Of a stretch of DNA of 64,000 bases, positions 17,086 through 34,344 are shown piece by piece. A program made the position numbers and the translations under genes. Each line of letters opens with the position of its first letter. Positions within the stretch are counted from its first letter, which is position 1. The notes beneath the pieces are model-generated. The model did not search any database. It was not told the DNA's origin and saw only the letters and a list, made by a program, of their open reading frames with translations. The DNA is from Planctomycetota bacterium (GTDB lineage Bacteria; Planctomycetota; B15-G4; JADJEK01): NCBI GenBank assembly GCA_016213895.1, contig JACQZJ010000099.1, positions 12,481-76,480 on the forward strand, in the 5' to 3' direction.

Positions 17086-18219
17086 TCACTCTCCCGCGCC
17101 GACCTTCTCCGCGCGGATCGTGCTGCCGCCGATCCGCAGGGTCAGCGCCACGACCGCTCCCTGGTCGTCCGCGTCGAAGACGATCGTGGCCGCGGTGTGG
17201 CGCAGGGCGAACTCGCGCTCCGCCAGGGGAACGAGGTCGAGGTACGCGTCGTTCCAGAAGAAGTTGCACTGGAGCTGCTGGCCGTCGCGGCGCACGGTGT
17301 AGACCGTCTCGCGCGCGCCGCCGGGCCGATAGCGGCCGGCGCAGCGCTCGAGCTGCTCTGCCTTGAGCGAGACCGCGGGCTGCGTACCGCCTTCCGGCGG
17401 GCCGGGCTCGGCGCTCTCCCTCAGTTCGCGCAGCCAGATGTTGCGGAAACGCACCGGCGATCCGTGATTCTGCAGGGAAAGGGGCAGGCGGTCGGGGTGC
17501 TCCTCGTAGGGCAGGTGCTGCAGCCACGCCGTGGGTCCAAGCAGCGGGACAGCGTCCTGGACCAGGATGCCGTTCTGCTGCACGGTCACGCGCGCGGGCG
17601 CGATGAGCGCGCCGTCCTCTGCGAAGCGCGGACGGCGGAAGACGATGTCGAAAGACTGCCATTCCCCGGGCGGCCGGCAGGCGTTCACCAGAGGCGGATA
17701 CTGGCCGTACACGGCCGCGGCCTGCCCGTCCGCGTAGGTGTCGTTTTCGAAGGAGTCGAGGATCTGCACCTCGTACAGGCCCATGAGGAAGACGCCGCTG
17801 TTGCCGCGGCCCTGGCTCGTGCCCGCGGCCGGCAGCGGCGCGGCCCACTCGACGTGGAGCTGCACGTCGCCGAACCCCTGGACCGTGACGATGTCCTCGG
17901 CGCCGGGCGCGGGCTGGAAGGCGCCGTCCGCGACGACCCAGTCCGCGGGCCCCCCCTTCTCGCTGCGCCACGCCTCGAGGCCTTGGCCGCAGAACAGGAG
18001 CACGGCGTCGGATGGAGGCAGGGCGGGGAGGTCCTGCGGCGCCGGGGCGACGACGGGCGGGCGCGGCCGTGCGAGGTCGTGGGTTTTCCAGCGCGGCGCT
18101 TCCTGGCCGAGAGCCGGGGCCTCGGAGCAGGCCACGGCGAGAAGGAGCGCGAGGGCCGCGGCCCTGAGCCGGGCGCGCGGCGGACGAGGAAGCTCGGGGA
18201 GGACAGGCGTTCGTGTCAT
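17086..18219 (-). CDS. Secreted DUF1080 (3-keto-disaccharide hydrolase-like) protein
   Basis: PPSDAVLLF, FGDVQLHVEW, GNSGVFL, YEVQILDS, LQNHG.PVRFRNIW motifs; signal peptide. Confidence 0.85.
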   Translation of the reverse strand: MTRTPVLPELPRPPRARLRAAALALLLAVACSEAPALGQEAPRWKTHDLARPRPPVVAPAPQDLPALPPSDAVLLFCGQGLEAWRSEKGGPADWVVADGAFQPAPGAEDIVTVQGFGDVQLHVEWAAPLPAAGTSQGRGNSGVFLMGLYEVQILDSFENDTYADGQAAAVYGQYPPLVNACRPPGEWQSFDIVFRRPRFAEDGALIAPARVTVQQNGILVQDAVPLLGPTAWLQHLPYEEHPDRLPLSLQNHGSPVRFRNIWLRELRESAEPGPPEGGTQPAVSLKAEQLERCAGRYRPGGARETVYTVRRDGQQLQCNFFWNDAYLDLVPLAEREFALRHTAATIVFDADDQGAVVALTLRIGGSTIRAEKVGAGE

Positions 18220-18349
18220 GCTGGCGAGACTCCAGGCTTTACGGGCGCGCGGCCGTTTTCGGCTGGCTCGCGCCGTGCCGCGGCATGATATAGGATCGCG
18301 GCCCGCGGCGCTTTCGCCGCGCCGGACGCCTGTTCGTCGAGTCGCGCCC

Positions 18350-19183
18350 ATGGAAGGAAACGCCTTCGTTGCCCTGGCCCTGACGCTCTTCGCCGGGCTC
18401 ACCACCGCGCTCGGCGCGCTGGTCGTGTTCTTCACGCGCGGGCCGCGCATGGGCCTCTTGTCCTTCGGTCTCGGCTTCTCCAGCGGGGTGATGGTCTTCA
18501 TCTCGTTGAAGGAGCTGCTCCCCGGGGCGGACGCCCTGATCGGCGGGGCGCTCGGCGAGCGGCAGGGGGGCTGGATCGCCACCGCCTGCTTCTTCGGCGG
18601 TGTCATCGTCTCGGCGATCATCGACCAGCTCGTTCCCGAGCCGGAGAACCCGCACGAGGCGGTCTCGTTGGCCGACATGGCGCGCGCGCGCGCCGGGGAG
18701 AGGCCGGCGCCTTCCGGTGCCGGCGGGCAGAAGCCTTCCCTGGCGCGCGTGGGCCTGCTCTCGGCGCTCGTCATCGGCATCCACAACCTCCCGGAGGGGA
18801 TGGCGACCTTCGCCAGCGCGCTCGCGGGCACGTCGCTCGGCCTGTCGATCGCCGTGGCCGTGGCGATCCACAACATCCCGGAGGGGATCGCCGTGGCCGT
18901 GCCGATCTACTTCGCCACCGGCAGCCGCAAGAAGGCCTTCCTCTACGCGTTCATCTCCGGCCTGGCCGAGCCGGTCGGTGCGGTGCTCGTCTTCCTCGTG
19001 CTCATGCCGTTCATCAACGACGTGCTGGTCGGGGCCATGCTCGCCGCGGTCGGCGGGATCATGGTCTTCATCTCGTTCGACGAGCTCCTGCCCGCGGCGC
19101 GGGAGTACGGCCGGGGGCATACCGCCATCGCCGGCGTGGTGCTCGGCATGGCGGTGATGGCGGTGAGCCTGCTGCTCTTCTGA
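18350..19183 (+). CDS. zupT: ZIP-family divalent metal transporter
   Basis: Multi-pass membrane protein; HNLPEG and HNIPEG motifs; SGLAEPVG. Confidence 0.9.
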   Translation: MEGNAFVALALTLFAGLTTALGALVVFFTRGPRMGLLSFGLGFSSGVMVFISLKELLPGADALIGGALGERQGGWIATACFFGGVIVSAIIDQLVPEPENPHEAVSLADMARARAGERPAPSGAGGQKPSLARVGLLSALVIGIHNLPEGMATFASALAGTSLGLSIAVAVAIHNIPEGIAVAVPIYFATGSRKKAFLYAFISGLAEPVGAVLVFLVLMPFINDVLVGAMLAAVGGIMVFISFDELLPAAREYGRGHTAIAGVVLGMAVMAVSLLLF

Positions 19184-19348
19184 GCGGATCGCCTTCGCCC
19201 CGCGCGCCGGCCGATTCCCGTGGCTGGAGAGATGCCGCCCGTGGTATCTTGCGCCTTCCACCGGAGGTGCCGCGCTCCGGCGGCGCCGAGTCGATGGGGG
19301 AACCCTCGCCCGCGCATCTGTCTTGCATTCTCACGGAGGGAGAAGCAC

Positions 19349-20152
19349 ATGCACGAGAATCCGCAGGTGACGCTCAAGACCGTGACCGACGTCTACGACG
19401 GACCCGAGGGAGACCTCTGGGAGCTGCTCATGGGGCAGCAGATCCACCTGGGCGGCCTGACCTCCTCGATCGACCTGGCCGAGCAGGCCGGAATCGCCGC
19501 CGGGACGCGGGGCGTCGACCTGTGCTGCTGCAACGGCGCGGGCATGCGCTTCCTGCTCAGGACGCGCGGCGTGGCGCACATGACCGGCGTGGACGCGTGC
19601 GCGACCGTGCTCACGCGCGCGCGCGAACGCTCTGCCGCCGAGGGGTTTGCCGAGCGCACGCGCTTCGTCCAGGCGGACGTCACGGCGAGCGGGCTGGAGG
19701 GCGCCGCCGCGGACTTCGTCTGGGGCGAGGACGCCTGGTGCTACATCGTGGACAAGGAGCGGCTCATCGCCGAGGCGGCGCGCATCGTGCGCGGCGGCGG
19801 CATGATCGCCTTCACCGACTGGGTGGAGGGGCCCGCCGGGCTCAGCGCCGCGGAGGGGGAGCGCTTCCTGCGCTTCATGAAGTTCCCGAGCCTGTTGACC
19901 ATGAGCGGCTACGCCGACCTGCTTGGCGCGCACGGCTGCCGCGTGGTGAGGGCCGTGGACACCGGCCGCTTCGCGGCGTGCATGGACCTCTACCTGAACA
20001 TGGTCGGCATGCAGCTCACCTCCGACGTGCTGCGCATCATCGGCCATGACCAGGAGCTGTTCCGGGCCCTGGCAGGCGAGATGAGCTTCATGCAGGAGCT
20101 GGCGCACGCCGGGAAGATCGCCCAGGGCCAGTTCGTCGCGCGGAAGCGCTGA
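19349..20152 (+). CDS. Class I SAM-dependent methyltransferase
   Basis: GGAGGGAG RBS; motif I VDLCCCNGAG; DFVWGEDAW; RIVRGGGMIAFTDW. Confidence 0.85.
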   Translation: MHENPQVTLKTVTDVYDGPEGDLWELLMGQQIHLGGLTSSIDLAEQAGIAAGTRGVDLCCCNGAGMRFLLRTRGVAHMTGVDACATVLTRARERSAAEGFAERTRFVQADVTASGLEGAAADFVWGEDAWCYIVDKERLIAEAARIVRGGGMIAFTDWVEGPAGLSAAEGERFLRFMKFPSLLTMSGYADLLGAHGCRVVRAVDTGRFAACMDLYLNMVGMQLTSDVLRIIGHDQELFRALAGEMSFMQELAHAGKIAQGQFVARKR

Positions 20153-20176
20153 GGGCAGGAAGGCGAGGAGCACGTC

Positions 20177-21436
20177 ATGAGCGGCACCTGTGGCGGAGAG
20201 AAGCCGCACGGCGATCCGGCCGATCCGTGCCGGCCCCCCTCCCCGTGCGGGGCGGCCTCCGCGCCGCCTCTCTGCGGTTCGGGCGGCGACGTCGCCTCCG
20301 GGCCGCGGGCGCGCTTCGCCCGCATGATCGAGAACGCCATCGCCTTCGCCAAGGAGGCCAAGGCCGCGGGCCGGCCGGTCGTGGGCATCATGTGCGAGTT
20401 CACGCCGCGCGAGATCATCATGGCCGCCGGCGCCGTGCCGGTCTGCCTGTGCGGCGGCTCGGCCGAGATGGCGCTCGCCGCCGAGGAGGAGCTGCCGGCC
20501 AACCTCTGCCCGCTCATCAAGTCCACGTACGGCTACCACGCCACGCGTTCGAACCCCCTGCTCGAGCTGGCCGACCTGGTGGTGGCGGAAACCACGTGCG
20601 ACGGCAAGAAGAAGATGTACGAGGTGATGGGGCGCACGCGCCCCATGCTCGTGCTGGAGCTGCCGCAGAAGCCCCTCGAGGAGGACGCCTTCCTGCACTG
20701 GCGCGCCGAGCTCATGCGGCTCTGCCGCGAGCTGGAGGCGCGCTTCCACGCGGCGATCACGGACGAGGCTCTGCGGGACGCGGTGCGCCGCATGAACCGG
20801 GAACGGGACCTGAGGAGGCGCCTCGCGCGCCTCCTGGCCGCGGAGCGCCCGCTCTTGAGCGGCAGGCAGATCCTCGATCTGAAGAGCCTCATCTCCTGCG
20901 TGCCGTGCGACCTGCTGGCGTACGAGCAGATCCTGCAGGAGTGCTCCGGCCGCCAGGCGCCCCAGGGCGCGGCGCGGCGGCCGCGCGTGCTGCTCACGGG
21001 CGTGCCGCACGTGCACGGCGCCGAGCGCGTCGTCGACCTCATCGAGCGCGCCGGCGGGCTCGTGGTCTGCCAGGAGAACTGCACCGGCCTGAAGCCGTTG
21101 CTCGAGGACGTGGCCGAGGACGCCGCCGACCCGCTGGACGCCATCGCCCAGAAGTACTTCCACCTGCCCTGCTCGGTGATGACCAGGAACACGCGGCGCT
21201 TCGATTCGCTGCGCGAGCTGGCGCGCGAGTTCTCGGTCGACTGCGTGATCGAGGTGGTGTGGCAGGCGTGCCTCACCTACGACGTCGAGGCGGTGCTCAT
21301 CAAGGAGTTCGTGGAGCGGGAGCTGCGCCTGCCCTACCTGAAGATCGTGACGGACTACAGTCCTTCCGACAGCGCCCGCATCACGGTGCGCGTCGAGGCC
21401 CTGTTCGAGACGCTGGCCGCGCGCGCGCGCCTTTGA
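20177..21436 (+). CDS. Double-cubane cluster protein (DCCP)-like member of the 2-hydroxyacyl-CoA dehydratase family
   Basis: GIMCEF.P, LCGG, NLCPLIKS, ETTCDGKKK, ENCTG, PCS and ACLTYDVE cysteine pattern. Confidence 0.8.
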   Translation: MSGTCGGEKPHGDPADPCRPPSPCGAASAPPLCGSGGDVASGPRARFARMIENAIAFAKEAKAAGRPVVGIMCEFTPREIIMAAGAVPVCLCGGSAEMALAAEEELPANLCPLIKSTYGYHATRSNPLLELADLVVAETTCDGKKKMYEVMGRTRPMLVLELPQKPLEEDAFLHWRAELMRLCRELEARFHAAITDEALRDAVRRMNRERDLRRRLARLLAAERPLLSGRQILDLKSLISCVPCDLLAYEQILQECSGRQAPQGAARRPRVLLTGVPHVHGAERVVDLIERAGGLVVCQENCTGLKPLLEDVAEDAADPLDAIAQKYFHLPCSVMTRNTRRFDSLRELAREFSVDCVIEVVWQACLTYDVEAVLIKEFVERELRLPYLKIVTDYSPSDSARITVRVEALFETLAARARL

Positions 21437-21437
21437 C

Positions 21438-22424
21438 GTGGACCTCCCCGAGTTCGCCTGCTTCTCGCCGTTCATTCCCGCGGAGTGGGGCGCGGCGCAC
21501 GGCGTACGCCTCACGCGCCTGGCGCGGCCGCCCGCCGCCGCGCAGCGCGCGCCCCGCGAGGGGCGCTGCACCTACGCGGTGAGCGCCCTCGAGTTGGCTC
21601 AGGGCTTCCTCGCCGCGGGCGGCGCGGGCGCCGTCTTCACCACGTCGTGCGATCAGATGCGCCGCAGCGCGGAGCTGCTCGCGCCCGCGGAGCGCGTCTT
21701 CCTCTTCAACCTGCCGCACACCTGGGAGACGCCTCTGCCGCACCGCCTGTTCCGCCAGGAGCTCCTGCGCCTCTCCGGCTTCCTGTGCCGCGCCGGCGGG
21801 CGCGCCTTCGCGGAGGAGGATCTGGCCGCGGCCATGCGCCGCTTCGACGGCGCGCGGCGCGAGCTGCTCGCGCGCCGGGAGACGTCGCGCGCCGCGACTT
21901 TCGCGCGCCTGCTGCTCGCCTTCCACGAGCGCGCGGATGGTTCTCTGCCCGAAACCGCAGCGCAGGAGGCCCGGCCGGCGCGCGGGCCCGGCGTCGCGGT
22001 GCTGGGCGGCCCGTTGCTCGAGCGCGACCTCTGGCTGCTCGATCTGATCGAGGAGAGCGGCGGCCGCGTGGTGTTGAACGCCACGGACACGGGCGAGCGC
22101 ACCCTGCCGCGTTTCTTCGAGCGCAGCCGCCTCGTCGCCGATCCGCTGGGCGAGCTGGCGGACGCCTACTTCGGGCACATCCCCGACGTGTTTCGGCGGC
22201 CGAACAGCGAGCTGTTCCGCTACCTGGAGCGCGAACTCAGCGCGCGCGCGGCGCAGGGCGCGGTGCTGGTCATGCCCGTGTGGTGCGACTTCTGGCGCGC
22301 CGAGGCGGAGCGCCTGCGCGGCTGGCTGCCCTGTCCGCTCGCGGCCATCGACCTGGCGGACGACGCCAACGGACGGCAGCGGGCGCGCACGCGCATCCAG
22401 GCGCTGCTGGAGACCATCTCGTGA
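21438..22424 (+). CDS. HgdB/BcrC-like 2-hydroxyacyl-CoA dehydratase family subunit
   Basis: GRCTY, TSCDQMRR and WCDFW cysteines; C-terminal RTRIQALLE. Confidence 0.75.
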   Translation: MDLPEFACFSPFIPAEWGAAHGVRLTRLARPPAAAQRAPREGRCTYAVSALELAQGFLAAGGAGAVFTTSCDQMRRSAELLAPAERVFLFNLPHTWETPLPHRLFRQELLRLSGFLCRAGGRAFAEEDLAAAMRRFDGARRELLARRETSRAATFARLLLAFHERADGSLPETAAQEARPARGPGVAVLGGPLLERDLWLLDLIEESGGRVVLNATDTGERTLPRFFERSRLVADPLGELADAYFGHIPDVFRRPNSELFRYLERELSARAAQGAVLVMPVWCDFWRAEAERLRGWLPCPLAAIDLADDANGRQRARTRIQALLETIS

Positions 22425-23812
22425 TCTCGCCCTTTCCGCCGCAGTGCATCGGCGTGGCGGACTGGGATCTGCTGCGCGAACGCCTGCTCGGCCTGGGGCT
22501 CGTGGAGCCCTGGTACGGTGGGCCGCTCGGGCGCCACGTGGAGCAGGGCGACAGCCGCTTGCTCAGGCTCTCCTTCGACAACTCGCCGGCCGCGCTGCGC
22601 CTCTGGAACTTCCTGCTGAGCGAGGAGGAGCGGCTGTTCGCCGCGCGCGCGCAGGGGTATCGCATCGTCGGCACGATGAAGGACTTAGGGATCGTGCCGC
22701 TGCTTGCCTATGCGCTGCCGAAGGCGCTTGCCTTCTACCCGGACGGCGCCTGGTGGATTCCGTGCGTGATGGAGCTGTCCGCGGGCCTCTTGCGCTTCGC
22801 CGACGAGATCGGGCTGGACGAGTCGTTCTGCCCGGTGCGCGCCATGGTCGGCGCCTTCCTCGGCGAGGGGCACTTCCCGCGCCCCGACCTGGTTACGTGC
22901 AGCGTGGGCGCGACCTGCGACGACTTCTCCGCCATTGCGCAGCGGTTGAACGGCTTCGGCGTGCCCATTCTCTGGTGGGAGATGCCGCACGTGCGCGCGC
23001 CCGACCCGGGCGAGGAGGAGGCGCGGCTTCCCTCGGGCCAGACCGTGCCGGCCGCGCTCGTGCGCCAGGTGGAGGCGGAGTTCGCGCGCATCGCACGCCA
23101 CGTCGAGGAGGTGTGCGGCGAGGCGCTCACCGGCGAGCGCCTGGCCGCGGCCATCGAGCGGGCCAACGGCATCCGCGCGCAGCTCGAGGAGCTGCGCAGC
23201 GCCGTGTTTTTCGCGCCGCGGGCGCCGCTCCCTGCCCTCGAAGTGCTCATCGCCGAGATGCTCGCGATCCACTACTGCAGCGATCGCGACGAGACCGAGG
23301 CGGTGCTGGCCGATCTGCTTGCCGAGACGCGCCGCCGCGTGGCGTCAGGCCTCGGCTACGGCGACGGTTTCGAGGTGCGCGTCTTCTGGGTCAACCCGGT
23401 CGCCGATCTGACGGCGATGAACCTGCTCGAGAGCTGCGGCGGGCGCCTCTGCGGCACGGACTTCATGTTCTGCCACGCGCTCGACCCCATCCCCGTCGAT
23501 CGGCCGCCGCTCACCGCCCTGGCGCTCATGGCGCTCTCTGACCCGCTGGCGGGGACGGCGGCGGAGCGCGCGCGTCGCGTCGCCGCCGGCGCGCGCCGGT
23601 TCCGCGCCGAGGCCGTGCTCGTGTCCCGCATCCCGGGCGCGAGCCACTGCGCCTATGAGGGCGAGTTCATCGCCGAGCGCCTGCGCAGCGACCTGGGCAT
23701 TCCGGTGGCGGAGATAGAGGTGCCGCCTCTCAGCGACAGCGTGCGGCCGATCCTGCGCACGCGCATCGAGGCCGTGCTCGAGGCCGCGAGGAAACGACGG
23801 AGCGGAAGATGA
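22421..23812 (+). CDS. HgdA/BcrB-like 2-hydroxyacyl-CoA dehydratase family subunit
   Basis: GTG start overlapping the previous stop; FCPVRA, FPRPDL, ATCDD, SHCAYE and LRTRIEAVLE motifs. Confidence 0.75.
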   Translation: MISPFPPQCIGVADWDLLRERLLGLGLVEPWYGGPLGRHVEQGDSRLLRLSFDNSPAALRLWNFLLSEEERLFAARAQGYRIVGTMKDLGIVPLLAYALPKALAFYPDGAWWIPCVMELSAGLLRFADEIGLDESFCPVRAMVGAFLGEGHFPRPDLVTCSVGATCDDFSAIAQRLNGFGVPILWWEMPHVRAPDPGEEEARLPSGQTVPAALVRQVEAEFARIARHVEEVCGEALTGERLAAAIERANGIRAQLEELRSAVFFAPRAPLPALEVLIAEMLAIHYCSDRDETEAVLADLLAETRRRVASGLGYGDGFEVRVFWVNPVADLTAMNLLESCGGRLCGTDFMFCHALDPIPVDRPPLTALALMALSDPLAGTAAERARRVAAGARRFRAEAVLVSRIPGASHCAYEGEFIAERLRSDLGIPVAEIEVPPLSDSVRPILRTRIEAVLEAARKRRSGR

Positions 23813-24579
23813 TCGTCGCGGGCATCGACGGAGGGTCGCGCACCATCAAGGCTGCGCTCTTTGATACGAGCGCGGGCGAGGTGATCGGGACGGCGCTGCG
23901 CGACCAGGGCATCGATCAGAATCGCCTGGCGGAGGAGCTGCTCGACCAGACGCTCGCGCGGTGCGGCGTGCCGCGCGCGGATGTCACGGCGGTGCTCGCC
24001 ACCGGCTACGCGCGCCACCTCATGAACTTCGCCGGCCGCAAGGTGACCGAGATCACCTGCCAGGCGCGCGGTGTCTCCCACCTCTGTCCCGGGGCGCGCA
24101 GCGTCATCGAAATCGGCGGCCAGGACAGCAAGCTGGTCCGCCTCGAGGTGAACGGGACCGTGGACGACTTCGCCATGAACGACCGCTGCGCCGCGGGCAC
24201 CGGCCGCTTCCTGGAGATGATGGCCGGCCGGCTGGAGACGTCTCTCGCCGGGCTCGACCGCCTGGTGCGGCAAAGCCGCGAGCCGGCGGTGATCAGCAGC
24301 ATGTGCGTGGTCTTCGCCGAGACGGAGATCACTGGCCTGTTGTCGTGCGGCGTGGCGCCCGCGGAGATCGTGGTCGGCGTGGAGCGGGCCGTGGCGGAGC
24401 GCGTGGTGACCATGGCCGGGCGGAGGCTCATTGACCCGGTGGTCTTTACCGGGGGAGTCGCTTTGATTCCTGGCATGAGGGAGGCGCTGGAGCGCGCTCT
24501 GGAGCGGAGCGTGATGCTCTGTCCGATGGCGCAGCATAGTGGAGCGATAGGAGCAGCGTTGATTGCCGCGGAACAATAG
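23809..24579 (+). CDS. ATP-dependent [4Fe-4S] activase (HgdC/BadF-G/DCCP-R family)
   Basis: GIDGGSRTIK, TGYAR, IGGQDSK, MNDRCAAGTGRFLE and SMCVVFAE motifs. Confidence 0.92.
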   Translation: MIVAGIDGGSRTIKAALFDTSAGEVIGTALRDQGIDQNRLAEELLDQTLARCGVPRADVTAVLATGYARHLMNFAGRKVTEITCQARGVSHLCPGARSVIEIGGQDSKLVRLEVNGTVDDFAMNDRCAAGTGRFLEMMAGRLETSLAGLDRLVRQSREPAVISSMCVVFAETEITGLLSCGVAPAEIVVGVERAVAERVVTMAGRRLIDPVVFTGGVALIPGMREALERALERSVMLCPMAQHSGAIGAALIAAEQ

Positions 24580-24596
24580 AGGGAGGAGGGGGATGG

Positions 24597-24905
24597 GAGG
24601 AAGGAGGAGCGGAGCGGCTGTTCCCCGGGAATCGGGGGCGGATGCGCGACTTCCGGTGCATCGAGTGCGCGAGGAACGAGGTGTGGCTCGTCGAGATAGA
24701 GGCGACGCCGGCGGTTCGGTGCGGTGAAGATACGGGCGGTGGGCGTGGCACGGCGTCGCGGCCGCCCCCTCTTCCAGGGAAGCAGCCGCTCCGCTCCCGG
24801 GCTGCCTCGATTCTCACGGTCAAAGCGGCGCTGCTTGGGGACAGAAGAGGCAGGAGGGCTTGCGCGGACGAGAGTCCGCGCAAGCCACTCATGCACGCGC
24901 CGAGG
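24597..24905 (-). repeat. Long intergenic repeat family A, locus 2 (diverged)
   Basis: gatgcgcgacttccggtgcatcgagtgcgcgaggaacgag is the reverse complement of the family core; flanking blocks are degenerate. Confidence 0.65.
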
Positions 24906-25014
24906 ACGGCGCCGGAGAGGGCGCGGCAGCCGGCGGGTTGAAGGAATCCTGGCGCACCCGGCCGGGCTGGGCTACCCATTACCCCTCGAGCCGCTCTTGC
25001 CCCAAAGGTGAATC

Positions 25015-25740
25015 ATGCTGCTACGCTTCATCTCGACTTCGCTCCTCGTGCTCGTCGTCTCGACGGCGAACGCTCCGGCCGCCACGCACAACGTCGGCCT
25101 GTCGGGACTCAACTTCGTTCCCAAGGACATCACCGTGGCCGAAGGGGATACGGTCGTCTGGACCCATTCGGGGGCCATGAGCCACACGGTGACCGAGGAC
25201 CTGGGGGCGTTCAATCAGCCCCTGAACTCGGCGAACCCGACGGTGACGGTGGTCTTCAGCACGGCGTTCTTGGCCGCAAACCCGCGCGTGAACAACCGCT
25301 ACGACTACCACTGCATCCCGCATCAGTCGTTCGGCATGGTCGGGTCGGTGACGGTGACGGTGGCGAGCGCCTGGACGGACATCGGCTTCGGGCTCGCCGG
25401 CTCGAGCGGGGTTCCGCAGCTCGCCGGCACCGGCACGCTCCAACCTTCGACCTCGGGGTCGCTCGACCTCACCAACGGCGCCGGCGGCGCGTTCGCCATC
25501 CTCTTCGTCACCGTCGGACCGAACACGCCGACGCCATTCTATGGCGGGGTGCTCGCCACCGTGCCCGTTTCGCTGCAGTTGCCTCTGACGCTGCCGGCCT
25601 CCGGGAACCTGCCCCTGCCGTTCGTGATGCCCGCGGGCGTCCCGCCGGGCCTCAAGCTGACCTGCCAGTGGGGCATCCAGGACGCCGGCGCGGTGCAGGG
25701 AGTTGCCCTCTCGAACGCGGTGCAGGCCACCACGCCTTGA
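25015..25740 (+). CDS. Secreted cupredoxin (plastocyanin/azurin-like) with C-terminal beta-rich domain
   Basis: Signal peptide; FVPKDITVAEGDTVVW, HTVT and YDYHCIPHQSFGM type-1 copper ligands. Confidence 0.85.
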   Translation: MLLRFISTSLLVLVVSTANAPAATHNVGLSGLNFVPKDITVAEGDTVVWTHSGAMSHTVTEDLGAFNQPLNSANPTVTVVFSTAFLAANPRVNNRYDYHCIPHQSFGMVGSVTVTVASAWTDIGFGLAGSSGVPQLAGTGTLQPSTSGSLDLTNGAGGAFAILFVTVGPNTPTPFYGGVLATVPVSLQLPLTLPASGNLPLPFVMPAGVPPGLKLTCQWGIQDAGAVQGVALSNAVQATTP

Positions 25741-28993: not shown

Positions 28994-29785
28994 ATGCCGT
29001 TTGCCAGCATCCTGTTCGATGTCGATGAGCGCGGGATCGCCCGTATCGTCCTGAACCGGCCCGAGCGCCGCAACGCCATGACGCCCGAGATGGGCGCCGA
29101 GGTGCGCCAGGCGGTGGAGCGCGTCAACACCGACGACGCCGCGCGCGTGGCCGTCATCAGCGGCGCGGGCGGGGCGTTCTGCTCCGGCGCGGACCTCGAG
29201 AGCCTGGCGCGCGAGGCCGGCCTCAGGAAGGACGGCGCCGGCCTGGGCGGAGAGGGCAGCTTCTACCGCTCGTTCCTGTCGATCGCGTCGCTGCGCGTGC
29301 CATCCATCGCCGCGATCAACGGCCACGCCGTTGGCGCCGGGCTGTGCTTCGCGCTCGGTGCCGACCTGCGCGTCATGCATGAACGCGCCAAGGCGGGCAT
29401 GACGTTCGTGCGACTCGGCATCCACCCGGGAATGGGAGGGACGTGGAACCTGCCGCGCCTGGTCGGGCCCGCGGCCGCCGCCGACTTGCTCTACAGCGGG
29501 CGGCTGCTCGGTGCGGCCGAGGCGCTCTCCATCGGACTGGTGAACCGCGTGGCGGGCGATGACTTCGACGAGGTCGTGGGGGAGCTGGCCGCGCAGATCG
29601 CCGCCTGCGCCCCCCTGGCCGTGCGCGCTCTGAAGGAGTCGCTGCGGGACGGCGCGCTGCGCTCGCTCGAGGAGGCGCTCGACGTGGAGGCGCGGGCGCA
29701 GGCCATGACCTTCCGCACGGCGGACGCCGCCGAGGGGCTCGCGGCCCTGCTGGAGAAGCGGCCGCCGCGCTTCCAGGGGCGGTGA
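28994..29785 (+). CDS. Enoyl-CoA hydratase/isomerase family protein
   Basis: LNRPERRNA, FCSGADL, AAINGHAVGAG and GIHPGMGG motifs. Confidence 0.92.
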   Translation: MPFASILFDVDERGIARIVLNRPERRNAMTPEMGAEVRQAVERVNTDDAARVAVISGAGGAFCSGADLESLAREAGLRKDGAGLGGEGSFYRSFLSIASLRVPSIAAINGHAVGAGLCFALGADLRVMHERAKAGMTFVRLGIHPGMGGTWNLPRLVGPAAAADLLYSGRLLGAAEALSIGLVNRVAGDDFDEVVGELAAQIAACAPLAVRALKESLRDGALRSLEEALDVEARAQAMTFRTADAAEGLAALLEKRPPRFQGR

Positions 29786-33318: not shown

Positions 33319-34344
33319 TTGGGAAGACGCCGGGGCAAGCCCCATGACCGCCTGCTGCGCGCGGTGCTGCGCAGTCCCGCTGATGCGCGCGCGGTGCTCA
33401 GGGAGTTCTTGCCCGCGAAAGTCCGCGACCTGTGCAGCTTCGATTCCCTGCGACGCGAGCCCGGCAGCTTCGTGGACGAGAGGCTGCGGGCGCGCTTCTC
33501 GGATGCCCTGTTCAGCGTGCGCGCGCGCGACGAGGATCTTCTCGTCTACGTGCTGCTGGAGCACGTGCGCGTGGCGCCACGGCGGCTGCCCTTCTTCGTG
33601 CTGCGCTACGTGACGCGGATCCTGGAGCAGCACGCCGAGGAGCATCCGCACGACGACGCGCTGCCGCGCGTGGTGGGGCTCGTGGTCCATCAGGGGGACG
33701 CTCCATACCGCGGGGCACTCCGCATGGCCGACCTCTATCCCTCGGGTGCGGGCAGCTCCCTCGCGCGTTTCACGCCGGAGTTCGACTTCGTCCTCGTCGA
33801 TCTAGCCCTGATTCCGGATGAGGCGTTGCTCGGCTTGCACGTCCTGGGGGCGGCCTTCGCCGCGGCGGCGCTGCTTCTGATGAAGCACGTGGGAGATCCG
33901 GAGCTCTCGCGGCGCCTGGAGGCTTGGATGGGCGTGCTGCGCGCGGCGGCCGGAGGCTCGCGGCGCGCGGCGCTGATGCGTCTGCTATCCTATGTGGTCG
34001 CCGCGGCCCAAGACGAAGCCGCGCCGCGGGCGCTGTTGGTTGCCGCGCCGGAGGCCGAGGAGGTGTACATGACCCTTGCGAAACGCTGGCTGCAAGAAGG
34101 CCGCACCGAAGGCCGTGCCGAGGGCCGCACCGAAGGCCGTGCCGAGGGCCGCACCGAGGGCCGCACCGAGGGGGAGCGTCTGGCCCAGCGCCGCGCGCTC
34201 GCACGCCTGCTCGAGTCGCGGTTCGGTCCGCTGGACGCCGCGGTTCGCGCCCAACTGGACGCGGCCGAGACCAGGACGCTTGAGGCGTGGTTCGACCGGG
34301 CCCTGGCCGCGAGATCCCTCGAGGAGATCCTCGCTTCCCCGTGA
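33319..34344 (+). CDS. Rpn/YhgA-like recombination-promoting nuclease (Transposase_31 family)
   Basis: PHDRLLR, GSFVDERLR..SDALF, VYVLLEH, MTLAKRW, EGRxEG repeats and RFG...LEAW tail. Confidence 0.88.
   Translation: MGRRRGKPHDRLLRAVLRSPADARAVLREFLPAKVRDLCSFDSLRREPGSFVDERLRARFSDALFSVRARDEDLLVYVLLEHVRVAPRRLPFFVLRYVTRILEQHAEEHPHDDALPRVVGLVVHQGDAPYRGALRMADLYPSGAGSSLARFTPEFDFVLVDLALIPDEALLGLHVLGAAFAAAALLLMKHVGDPELSRRLEAWMGVLRAAAGGSRRAALMRLLSYVVAAAQDEAAPRALLVAAPEAEEVYMTLAKRWLQEGRTEGRAEGRTEGRAEGRTEGRTEGERLAQRRALARLLESRFGPLDAAVRAQLDAAETRTLEAWFDRALAARSLEEILASP
34069..34344 (+). CDS. Putative intragenic small Rpn C-terminal protein (Rpn-S)
   Basis: In-frame ATG preceded by a GAGGAGGT Shine-Dalgarno inside rpn. 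Confidence 0.6.
   Translation: MTLAKRWLQEGRTEGRAEGRTEGRAEGRTEGRTEGERLAQRRALARLLESRFGPLDAAVRAQLDAAETRTLEAWFDRALAARSLEEILASP
34096..34167 (+). repeat. 12-bp tandem repeat x6 encoding EGR(T/A)
   Basis: ga(a/g)ggccg(cacc/tgcc) repeated six times. Confidence 0.9.

Follow-up and report, generated by a model that had tools for sequence, protein, structure and literature searches.

What does a methyltransferase do in one operon with three proteins of the HGD-D superfamily and a single ATP-hydrolysing activase? The question is raised by positions 18350-24579 of a 64,000-nt stretch of DNA from a Planctomycetota bacterium (assembly GCA_016213895.1, contig JACQZJ010000099.1, positions 12,481 to 76,480 of the forward strand), which we call the window. 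An earlier note made from the sequence had proposed here an uncharacterised ATP-driven low-potential system, in which one activase serves two Fe-S enzymes in a methylation-coupled reduction. Here, we find that the locus encodes a real, conserved and uncharacterised variant of the double-cubane cluster protein (DCCP)/archerase type of system. We regard it with good confidence as an ATP-driven low-potential reductive system rather than a CoA-ester enzyme, in agreement with the note. For the more specific reading, that this reductase and its thiol-rich small-molecule methyltransferase act on selenium, the substrate that we infer to be the most likely, we see about an even chance.

Five genes form one translationally coupled operon

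The genes of the operon, named as in the rest of the text, are the following:

19349-20152, plus strand: S-adenosylmethionine (SAM)-dependent methyltransferase (MT), 267 aa, Pfam Methyltransf_11 at E 2.9e-14
20177-21436, plus strand: double-cubane cluster protein (DCCP, P0002), 419 aa, NF040772 at 404.5 bits against a cut-off of 350
21438-22424, plus strand: subunit B, 328 aa, divergent HGD-D protein, HGD-D at 91 bits
22421-23812, plus strand: subunit A, 463 aa, divergent HGD-D protein, HGD-D at 107 bits
23809-24579, plus strand: HgdC-type activase (archerase), 256 aa, TIGR00241 at 230.7 bits against a cut-off of 125.4

Reading the DNA directly, we found that the MT stop codon (TGA, 20150-20152) is separated by 24 nt from the ATG of the DCCP gene at 20177, that 1 nt lies between the DCCP stop (21434-21436) and the GTG start of B at 21438, and that stop and start codons overlap by 4 nt both between B and A (GTGA) and between A and the activase (ATGA). 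These junctions agree with the gaps of 24, 1, -4 and -4 nt given in the earlier note and confirm translational coupling within a five-gene operon. A ribosome-binding site, GGAGGGAG, stands 5' of the MT ATG. The scan of positions 18000-25200 returned no promoter-like site, and two terminator-like sites against 2.0 expected. Since the G+C content of the region is 72%, it holds many spurious open reading frames (ORFs); six plus-strand genes, namely the five above and zupT upstream of them, are backed by family matches.

The five-gene module is conserved across at least nine phyla

A search with subunit A returned more than 120 protein clusters at 60-67% identity, and among contigs taken from one genome per species 177 stretches encode a relative of A. 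The best 80 of these loci were examined, with six window proteins run against them by tblastn. The gene order MT-DCCP-B-A-activase was found in nearly all loci with enough flanking sequence, of which there are 57; 48 of these have the complete set, four with the DCCP gene ahead of MT. Judged by record titles, the loci come from at least nine phyla (Planctomycetota, Verrucomicrobiota, Kiritimatiellota, Lentisphaerota, Armatimonadota, Sumerlaeota, Hydrogenedentota, Myxococcota and Bacillota), across which identity to the window proteins is 55-69% for MT and 54-67% for A. As the five genes recur in this way, the methyltransferase clearly travels with the cluster, which the earlier proposal needed.

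Some loci carry an incomplete cassette: MT is missing from four (L015, L035, L047, L089), DCCP from three (L036, L053, L061), both DCCP and the activase from one (L044), and a single locus (L038) has only A of the five genes. The loci L036, L044, L053 and L061, which keep MT-B-A but have no DCCP, carry no selenium genes in their flanks. The distribution of the module is patchy, with 8 of 41 genomes related to that of the window and 10 of 201 genomes in a phylum sample possessing it. In the literature we found no paper that describes the five-gene cassette; the supplements of the Haft preprint (10.1101/2022.07.06.499078) may list such loci.

The operon encodes a double-cubane reductase and a single activase

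The window DCCP matches the proteins of PDB 7yyl/6eno with E ~5e-56 and all seven motif cysteines aligned (C73, C92, C111, C141, C302, C332 and C365, kept in 56-59 of 59 orthologues), the spacings being off by few residues from those of 7yyl. It belongs to the NF040772 equivalog, while B (62.5 bits) and A (38.8 bits), for both of which this is nevertheless the best NCBIfam match, fall outside it. In characterised members six cysteines of the seven-Cys motif bind the [8Fe-9S] cluster and one more lies nearby, the long form of the protein has narrow channels suiting small molecules, and the physiological substrate and role of the family have been open since its discovery (PMC7317905). By these sequence matches, the assignment of P0002 as a class-I-like double-cubane reductase, with a predicted [8Fe-9S] cluster, is strongly supported.

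The Cys-rich N-terminal tail of this protein, pointed out in the earlier note, is present as C5, C18, C24 and C33 in a CC...C...C pattern, conserved in 36-43 of 59 orthologues. Four loci have an in-frame TGA in place of the window's C24 or adjacent to it (L014:3120, L018:5815, L088:5501, L089:5835). The sequence upstream of the TGA, with its M-x-x-C-C/C-G start, is homologous to the tail, as is that beyond it, and tblastn aligns across the codon, which makes a selenocysteine (Sec)/Cys pair, and hence a selenocysteine form of DCCP, probable. One of the four, L089, also carries tRNA-Sec. Hairpins start 13-18 nt after the TGA in each of them, with z-scores from -1.95 to +1.38, and support for the tail Sec from a selenocysteine insertion sequence (SECIS) is only suggestive. 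In MT, B, A and the activase of the relatives no Sec codon was found, other in-frame stops being terminal or assembly errors. A word search of the text of a 2026 review of prokaryotic selenoproteins (PMC13188914) gave neither 'dehydratase' nor 'cubane', and the selenoprotein form of DCCP may therefore be unlisted.

The activase matches MbdQ (E 2.5e-52), HgdC (1hux, 2.1e-50) and DCCP-R (7yyl_E, 1.3e-36) and falls well within TIGR00241. Its C84, C127 and C166 are invariant (70/70). C127 and C166 align to cysteines of MbdQ, and we take them to be the two cysteines of HgdC that bridge the [4Fe-4S] cluster. A homodimeric ATPase of the HgdC type with a bridging [4Fe-4S] cluster is thus a strongly supported assignment. 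Such an activase receives an electron from ferredoxin or flavodoxin and, upon ATP hydrolysis, delivers it to its HGD-D partner at very low potential (PMC7317905). The assembly (5.5 Mb, 95.5% complete) encodes these three HGD-D proteins only and this one activase, and tblastn detected no second activase copy in the genome. The sole activase must therefore serve both DCCP and A/B, if both are activated, which is what had been suggested.

A predicted heterodimer of subunits A and B

B has no sequence match in the PDB at E<=0.01, and the sole PDB sequence match of A is DCCP (E 4e-5). In full-length hhalign comparisons with the DCCP profile, B reaches a probability of 99.6 and A of 98.1. The orthologue alignment of B shows three invariant cysteines (C44, C71, C283), and of the DCCP ligands hhalign finds equivalents of C111, C141 and C365 only. 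Seven cysteines are conserved in A (C115, C137, C160, C166, C286, C344, C410); it retains equivalents of DCCP C90/92, C111, C141 and C365, and C160, C286 and C344 are its own additions. A is more conserved than DCCP, with a mean column identity of 70% versus 57%, and its orthologues in different phyla share 56-67% identity. Its AlphaFold2 (AF2) model has a predicted local distance difference test score (pLDDT) of 87.3, the loop 112-120 around C115 being disordered. The best fold match by E-value is DCCP 6eno (7.9e-17, 19% identity), but HadB and BzdN/O, at 13-18% identity, give TM-scores similar to that of DCCP (0.71/0.82 for HadB 3o3m).

In complex prediction, the pair A+B gave an ipSAE of 0.89, whereas the best of three controls gave 0.00; the mark applied to this score is reached by 116 of 157 solved complexes and by 2 of 215 mismatched pairs. 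The runs agreed in at least 97% of contacts, with a partner pLDDT of at least 89, and the predicted interface (A 160-168 and 405-413; B 40-44, 69-73 and 282-285) holds conserved cysteines of both subunits. Because the HadBC and BzdNO complexes have been solved, this result may show likeness to them and is no proof of binding. We therefore describe A/B as a predicted heterodimer of deeply diverged double-cubane relatives. Comparisons of sequence, profile and fold place the two subunits in a separate branch of the HGD-D superfamily, outside the characterised dehydratases and benzoyl-CoA reductases (BCRs). The earlier description of a divergent pair holds, but its labels, HgdB-like and HgdA-like, were loose, since the sequence of each is closest to the double-cubane protein.

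The methyltransferase carries five conserved cysteines

Motif I of MT, described before as an unusual LCCCNG, reads VDLCCCNGAG and holds C59, C60 and C61. Among 60 orthologue rows C59 is conserved in 60, C60 in 59, C61 in 58, C131 in 60 and C197 in 57; in a second alignment (A4, 48 rows) C59 and C131 do not vary, and C60, C61 and C197 are present in at least 90%. Vicinal cysteine motifs such as CCC and CC are typical of soft metal or metalloid binding. The AF2 model (pLDDT 95.2) is nearest to sarcosine/dimethylglycine and phosphoethanolamine N-methyltransferases, with TM-scores of 0.84-0.86 at 18-21% identity. With these enzymes (PDB 3uj7, 2o57) MT shares the class I fold and a helical lid for small polar substrates; however, the identity is low, and the motif I CCC together with conserved C131 and C197 points toward a different, thiophilic substrate. 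A search of a protein atlas with MT returned its own family and generic methyltransferases only. A SAM-dependent small-molecule methyltransferase with five conserved cysteines in its active-site region is strongly supported.

The arsenite methyltransferase ArsM was considered for MT and rejected: scores of 28.9 bits against NF008823 (cut-off 263), 34.7 against NF040539 (240) and 31.5 against NF041537 (510) leave it far outside these families, and there is no ArsM structure among the fold matches listed.

Relatives of the module lie beside selenium genes

The ORFs flanking the related loci were clustered and then scanned against families. SelD is encoded directly 3' of the activase in 32 of the 56 loci with at least 1.5 kb after that gene; of the 41 loci that extend at least 3 kb to each side, 26 encode SelD or SelA in their flanks (48 of 80 overall). 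Most of the SelD-followed loci carry Cys, not Sec, in the DCCP tail. The SelD in this position, of ~546 aa, is fused to a C-terminal AhpD/CMD domain; the fusion (L027:9809-11446 and 43 other loci) is Cys-rich towards its N terminus, has a CC motif in its linker and a CxxC in the AhpD/CMD domain, and scores 355 bits with TIGR00476 and 61 bits with PF02627. Other recurrent neighbours are SelA, encoded upstream on the opposite strand, and a NapH-like polyferredoxin. At seven loci (L016, L017, L024, L027, L068, L075, L081) the cassette is adjoined by an ATP-binding cassette (ABC) transporter that resembles SaoA/SaoP/SaoX but stays below the Sao cut-offs; Sao (SaoX, SaoP, SaoA) stands for the 'selenocysteine-assisted organometallic' locus. 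A DUF3034 protein is encoded directly 5' of MT at 16 loci (e.g., L056:4013-5026) and between MT and DCCP at one (L031:4536-5546), and a 421-aa membrane-anchored protein with no family match lies farther upstream (L062:2357-3619); both may take part in uptake. The selenium-linked loci fall into two large clades in a quick tree of A.

That double-cubane proteins are linked to SelD has been reported before. According to the Haft preprint, 955 of 970 NF040772 proteins above 400 bits sit in SelD-containing assemblies; the Fig. 5 legend of the mlp-cluster preprint (PMC10418091) shows DCCP and DCCP-R in selenium neighbourhoods, and a STRING table in Lin 2015 (PMC5322559, Table 1) for a selenium island of Slackia has an activase and HGD subunits among its entries, on which the authors do not comment.

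The window itself lies outside such islands. While selD or selA adjoins the five genes in 32 of 56 related loci, it does not do so here, and none of the recurrent selenium-island neighbours of the relatives occurs in the 64 kb. The window's genome has two selA, two selD and selB, all on other contigs, in the following places, and no SelD-AhpD fusion:

C64:35677-38037: selA-selD, the selD with a TGA
C97:39502-43691: selA-selB, followed by a NapH-like ferredoxin
C88:46075-47001: Cys-type selD beside a GltD-like oxidoreductase

The subgroup of A to which the window belongs shares no flank family except a 206-aa protein without a Pfam match (L023, L048, L052). The window module is a free-standing copy of the widely conserved five-gene module, detached from selenium genes, which implies that the five genes are a self-contained unit.

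Genes around the operon

Upstream of the operon stands one further gene with a clear family match:

18350-19183, plus strand: zupT zinc transporter, NF003243 at 339 bits against a cut-off of 252

The end of zupT lies 165 nt before the start of MT on the same strand. The earlier note was right about its position, but it is not part of the conserved set: it was rejected as a member of the system, as it stands beside the cassette in only one of 80 loci (L012, of the same genus). The earlier remark that no CoA transferase or ligase is nearby held for 41 of the 64 listed ORFs of at least 130 aa between ~8000 and 36000, namely the longer and less overlapped ones, and the flank families conserved around the 80 loci include none either. 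An enoyl-CoA hydratase is encoded at 28994-29782, 4.4 kb 3' of the operon, and is not conserved with the cassette.

Directly downstream, 62 nt past the activase, a 99-aa plus-strand ORF (24642-24941) starts with MRDFRCIEC...RC and is zinc-ribbon-like, with no Pfam match; it is followed by a secreted cupredoxin-like protein (25015-25740, plus strand, PF00127 at E 9e-11) that is not conserved with the operon. A YhgA-like transposase (33319-34341, plus strand, PF04754 at E 7e-39) lies ~9 kb past the operon, and lateral transfer would fit both this neighbour and the patchiness of the cassette among related genomes (8/41). In the relative L089, a long palindromic hairpin (L089:10207-10324) stands just past the activase; its matches, on either strand, are to unrelated miRNA models, whose names are due to chance.

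A proposed selenium-reducing role and its alternatives

If the system acts on selenium, reduced ferredoxin or flavodoxin would load the activase, and ATP hydrolysis would drive a very low-potential electron into DCCP and into A/B. These would reduce a small thiophilic substrate held on Cys thiols (a selenol in some relatives), among which the flexible N-terminal tail of DCCP and the CC/CCC motifs may be counted. The substrate could be elemental or thiol-bound selenium, or organoselenium, and the product selenide, which would be handed to SelD for the synthesis of selenophosphate. MT would act on this selenium pool too, its methylation serving as an overflow or giving a methylated intermediate; that methylation and reduction are coupled is something we only infer. 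The Se(0)/selenide couple is very low, at about -0.7 V. The fullest form of this proposal, in which ATP-boosted selenide is made from poorly reducible selenium and passed on Cys/Sec arms to SelD, with A/B as a new type of Fe-S enzyme and MT in control of the selenide pool, we put forward tentatively, as possible rather than probable. The earlier guess of a metalloid substrate fits the invariant cysteine clusters and the selenium-gene neighbourhoods of the relatives, though as to the substrate itself it stays conjectural.

Several observations weigh against a role in selenium metabolism. There is no selenium gene in the whole 64-kb window. In the quick tree of A, a long branch carries the window and L012 within a subgroup of weak support; of its 14 rows, eight are without selenium genes, five have flanks too short to tell and one has such genes; the synteny evidence is therefore borrowed from orthologues of ~60% identity. 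SelD is present in all 10 A-positive genomes of the 201-genome phylum sample, but 147 of all 201 have it too, which sets the chance of 10/10 at ~0.04, and related genomes are not independent; since SelD is so common in the sample, its co-occurrence is weak evidence, and as it occurs far more often than the module, selenium use in general does not require the module. Compared with shuffled sequences, the hairpins downstream of the TGA codons are not significant; they score no better than those at control Cys codons, and Rfam gave no SECIS match at these loci. The fold of MT, finally, is nearest to small-amine N-methyltransferases and not to ArsM.

The same reductase and methyltransferase could instead serve another soft substrate (arsenic, tellurium, mercury, polysulfide or a small S/N compound), the selenium genes adjoining only because some lineages have the reductase as a selenoprotein. 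Vicinal CCC and CC motifs would suit such metals and metalloids as well, the weak NCBIfam matches of MT include ArsM-type models (E 1e-8 to 7e-7), the window's subgroup mostly lacks selenium neighbours, and the tail Sec occurs in four loci only. Yet the flank families conserved around the 80 loci include no ars, mer or tellurite genes, and selenoprotein genes rarely stand directly 5' of selD, whereas SelD follows the activase in more than half of the loci, mostly with Cys-tailed proteins; we judge this explanation unlikely. Still less probable, in our view, is that A/B form a NifEN-like maturation scaffold for the double-cubane cofactor, with MT (and SelD in relatives) modifying the cluster, e.g., by a selenium bridge. 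A and B are indeed DCCP paralogues with partly kept ligand cysteines, one ATPase for two related Fe-S proteins parallels NifH, and a selenium-containing cluster is raised as a formal possibility in the Haft preprint. However, the four loci that lack DCCP still have MT-B-A (L036, L044, L053, L061), which would leave a scaffold without its client, A is better conserved than DCCP, and a radical-SAM gene is lacking.

A conventional enzyme for CoA thioesters, be it a 2-hydroxyacyl-CoA dehydratase or an aryl-CoA reductase, would account for the HGD-D fold, for the match of A to HadB and BzdN/O nearly as good as to DCCP, for an activase nearest to MbdQ and HgdC, and for the enoyl-CoA hydratase downstream. 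The family models speak otherwise: P0002 scores 53.3 bits with the HadC model against 700, and 51 bits with the BcrC and BzdN models against 421-454; B scores 18.7 bits with benz_CoA_red_C against 421, A matches no dehydratase or BCR equivalog, and neither A nor B matches HadC. No subunit clusters with the characterised enzymes, which agrees with the earlier proposal. Together with the lack of a CoA transferase or ligase among the scanned ORFs and flank families, the sole PDB sequence match of A to DCCP, and one ATPase gene rather than two, this makes a CoA-ester enzyme highly improbable. A functional tie of the operon to zinc uptake, to which only the proximity and orientation of zupT would point, can practically be dismissed in light of its single occurrence among the 80 loci.

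How anaerobes obtain selenide for SelD is poorly understood, and if the selenium proposal is true, selenium would be the first physiological substrate assigned to double-cubane proteins. The module makes both this question and that of the role of DCCP testable, as it offers four enzymes, defined candidate substrates and a coupled SelD assay.

Comparison with known systems

Class I BCRs (BcrABCD, BzdNOPQ, MbdONPQ) share with the window system the HGD-D fold and an ATPase of the same family, MbdQ being the best PDB match of the activase; they differ in having two different ATPase genes, where one is found here, and no aromatic-degradation genes lie near the operon. The resemblance to HgdAB/HgdC and HadBC/HadI consists in two HGD-D proteins in a heterodimer, predicted here and possibly reproduced through likeness to the solved complexes, together with one homodimeric activase; B has three cysteines, as does the accessory subunit of those enzymes, and A shares the HadB fold. 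Unlike in HadBC, A has seven conserved cysteines instead of three, at 13% identity, and the window system has no CoA-activating enzyme among the scanned ORFs and equivalog scores far below the cut-offs.

As regards genomic setting, the neighbourhoods in the Haft and mlp-cluster preprints and in Lin 2015 have double-cubane proteins or activases beside, or co-occurring with, selD and selA, as in the relatives studied here; the passages concerned do not describe MT, the A/B pair, the SelD-AhpD fusion or the tail Sec/Cys position. To these records the window contributes a free-standing copy, and our comparison the Sec/Cys tail together with the predicted A/B heterodimer.

The closest known system is DCCP/DCCP-R of Carboxydothermus hydrogenoformans (6eno, 7yyl), whose family is also the nearest to A and B by sequence. 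P0002 has the family model, the seven-Cys motif, the long form (419 vs 421 aa) and the archerase-type ATPase in common with it, although the window ATPase resembles HgdC and MbdQ more than it does DCCP-R. Over the known pair, P0002 adds a Cys-rich N-terminal tail with a Sec/Cys position, and the system as a whole adds a diverged heterodimeric pair of paralogues, as predicted, and a dedicated methyltransferase.

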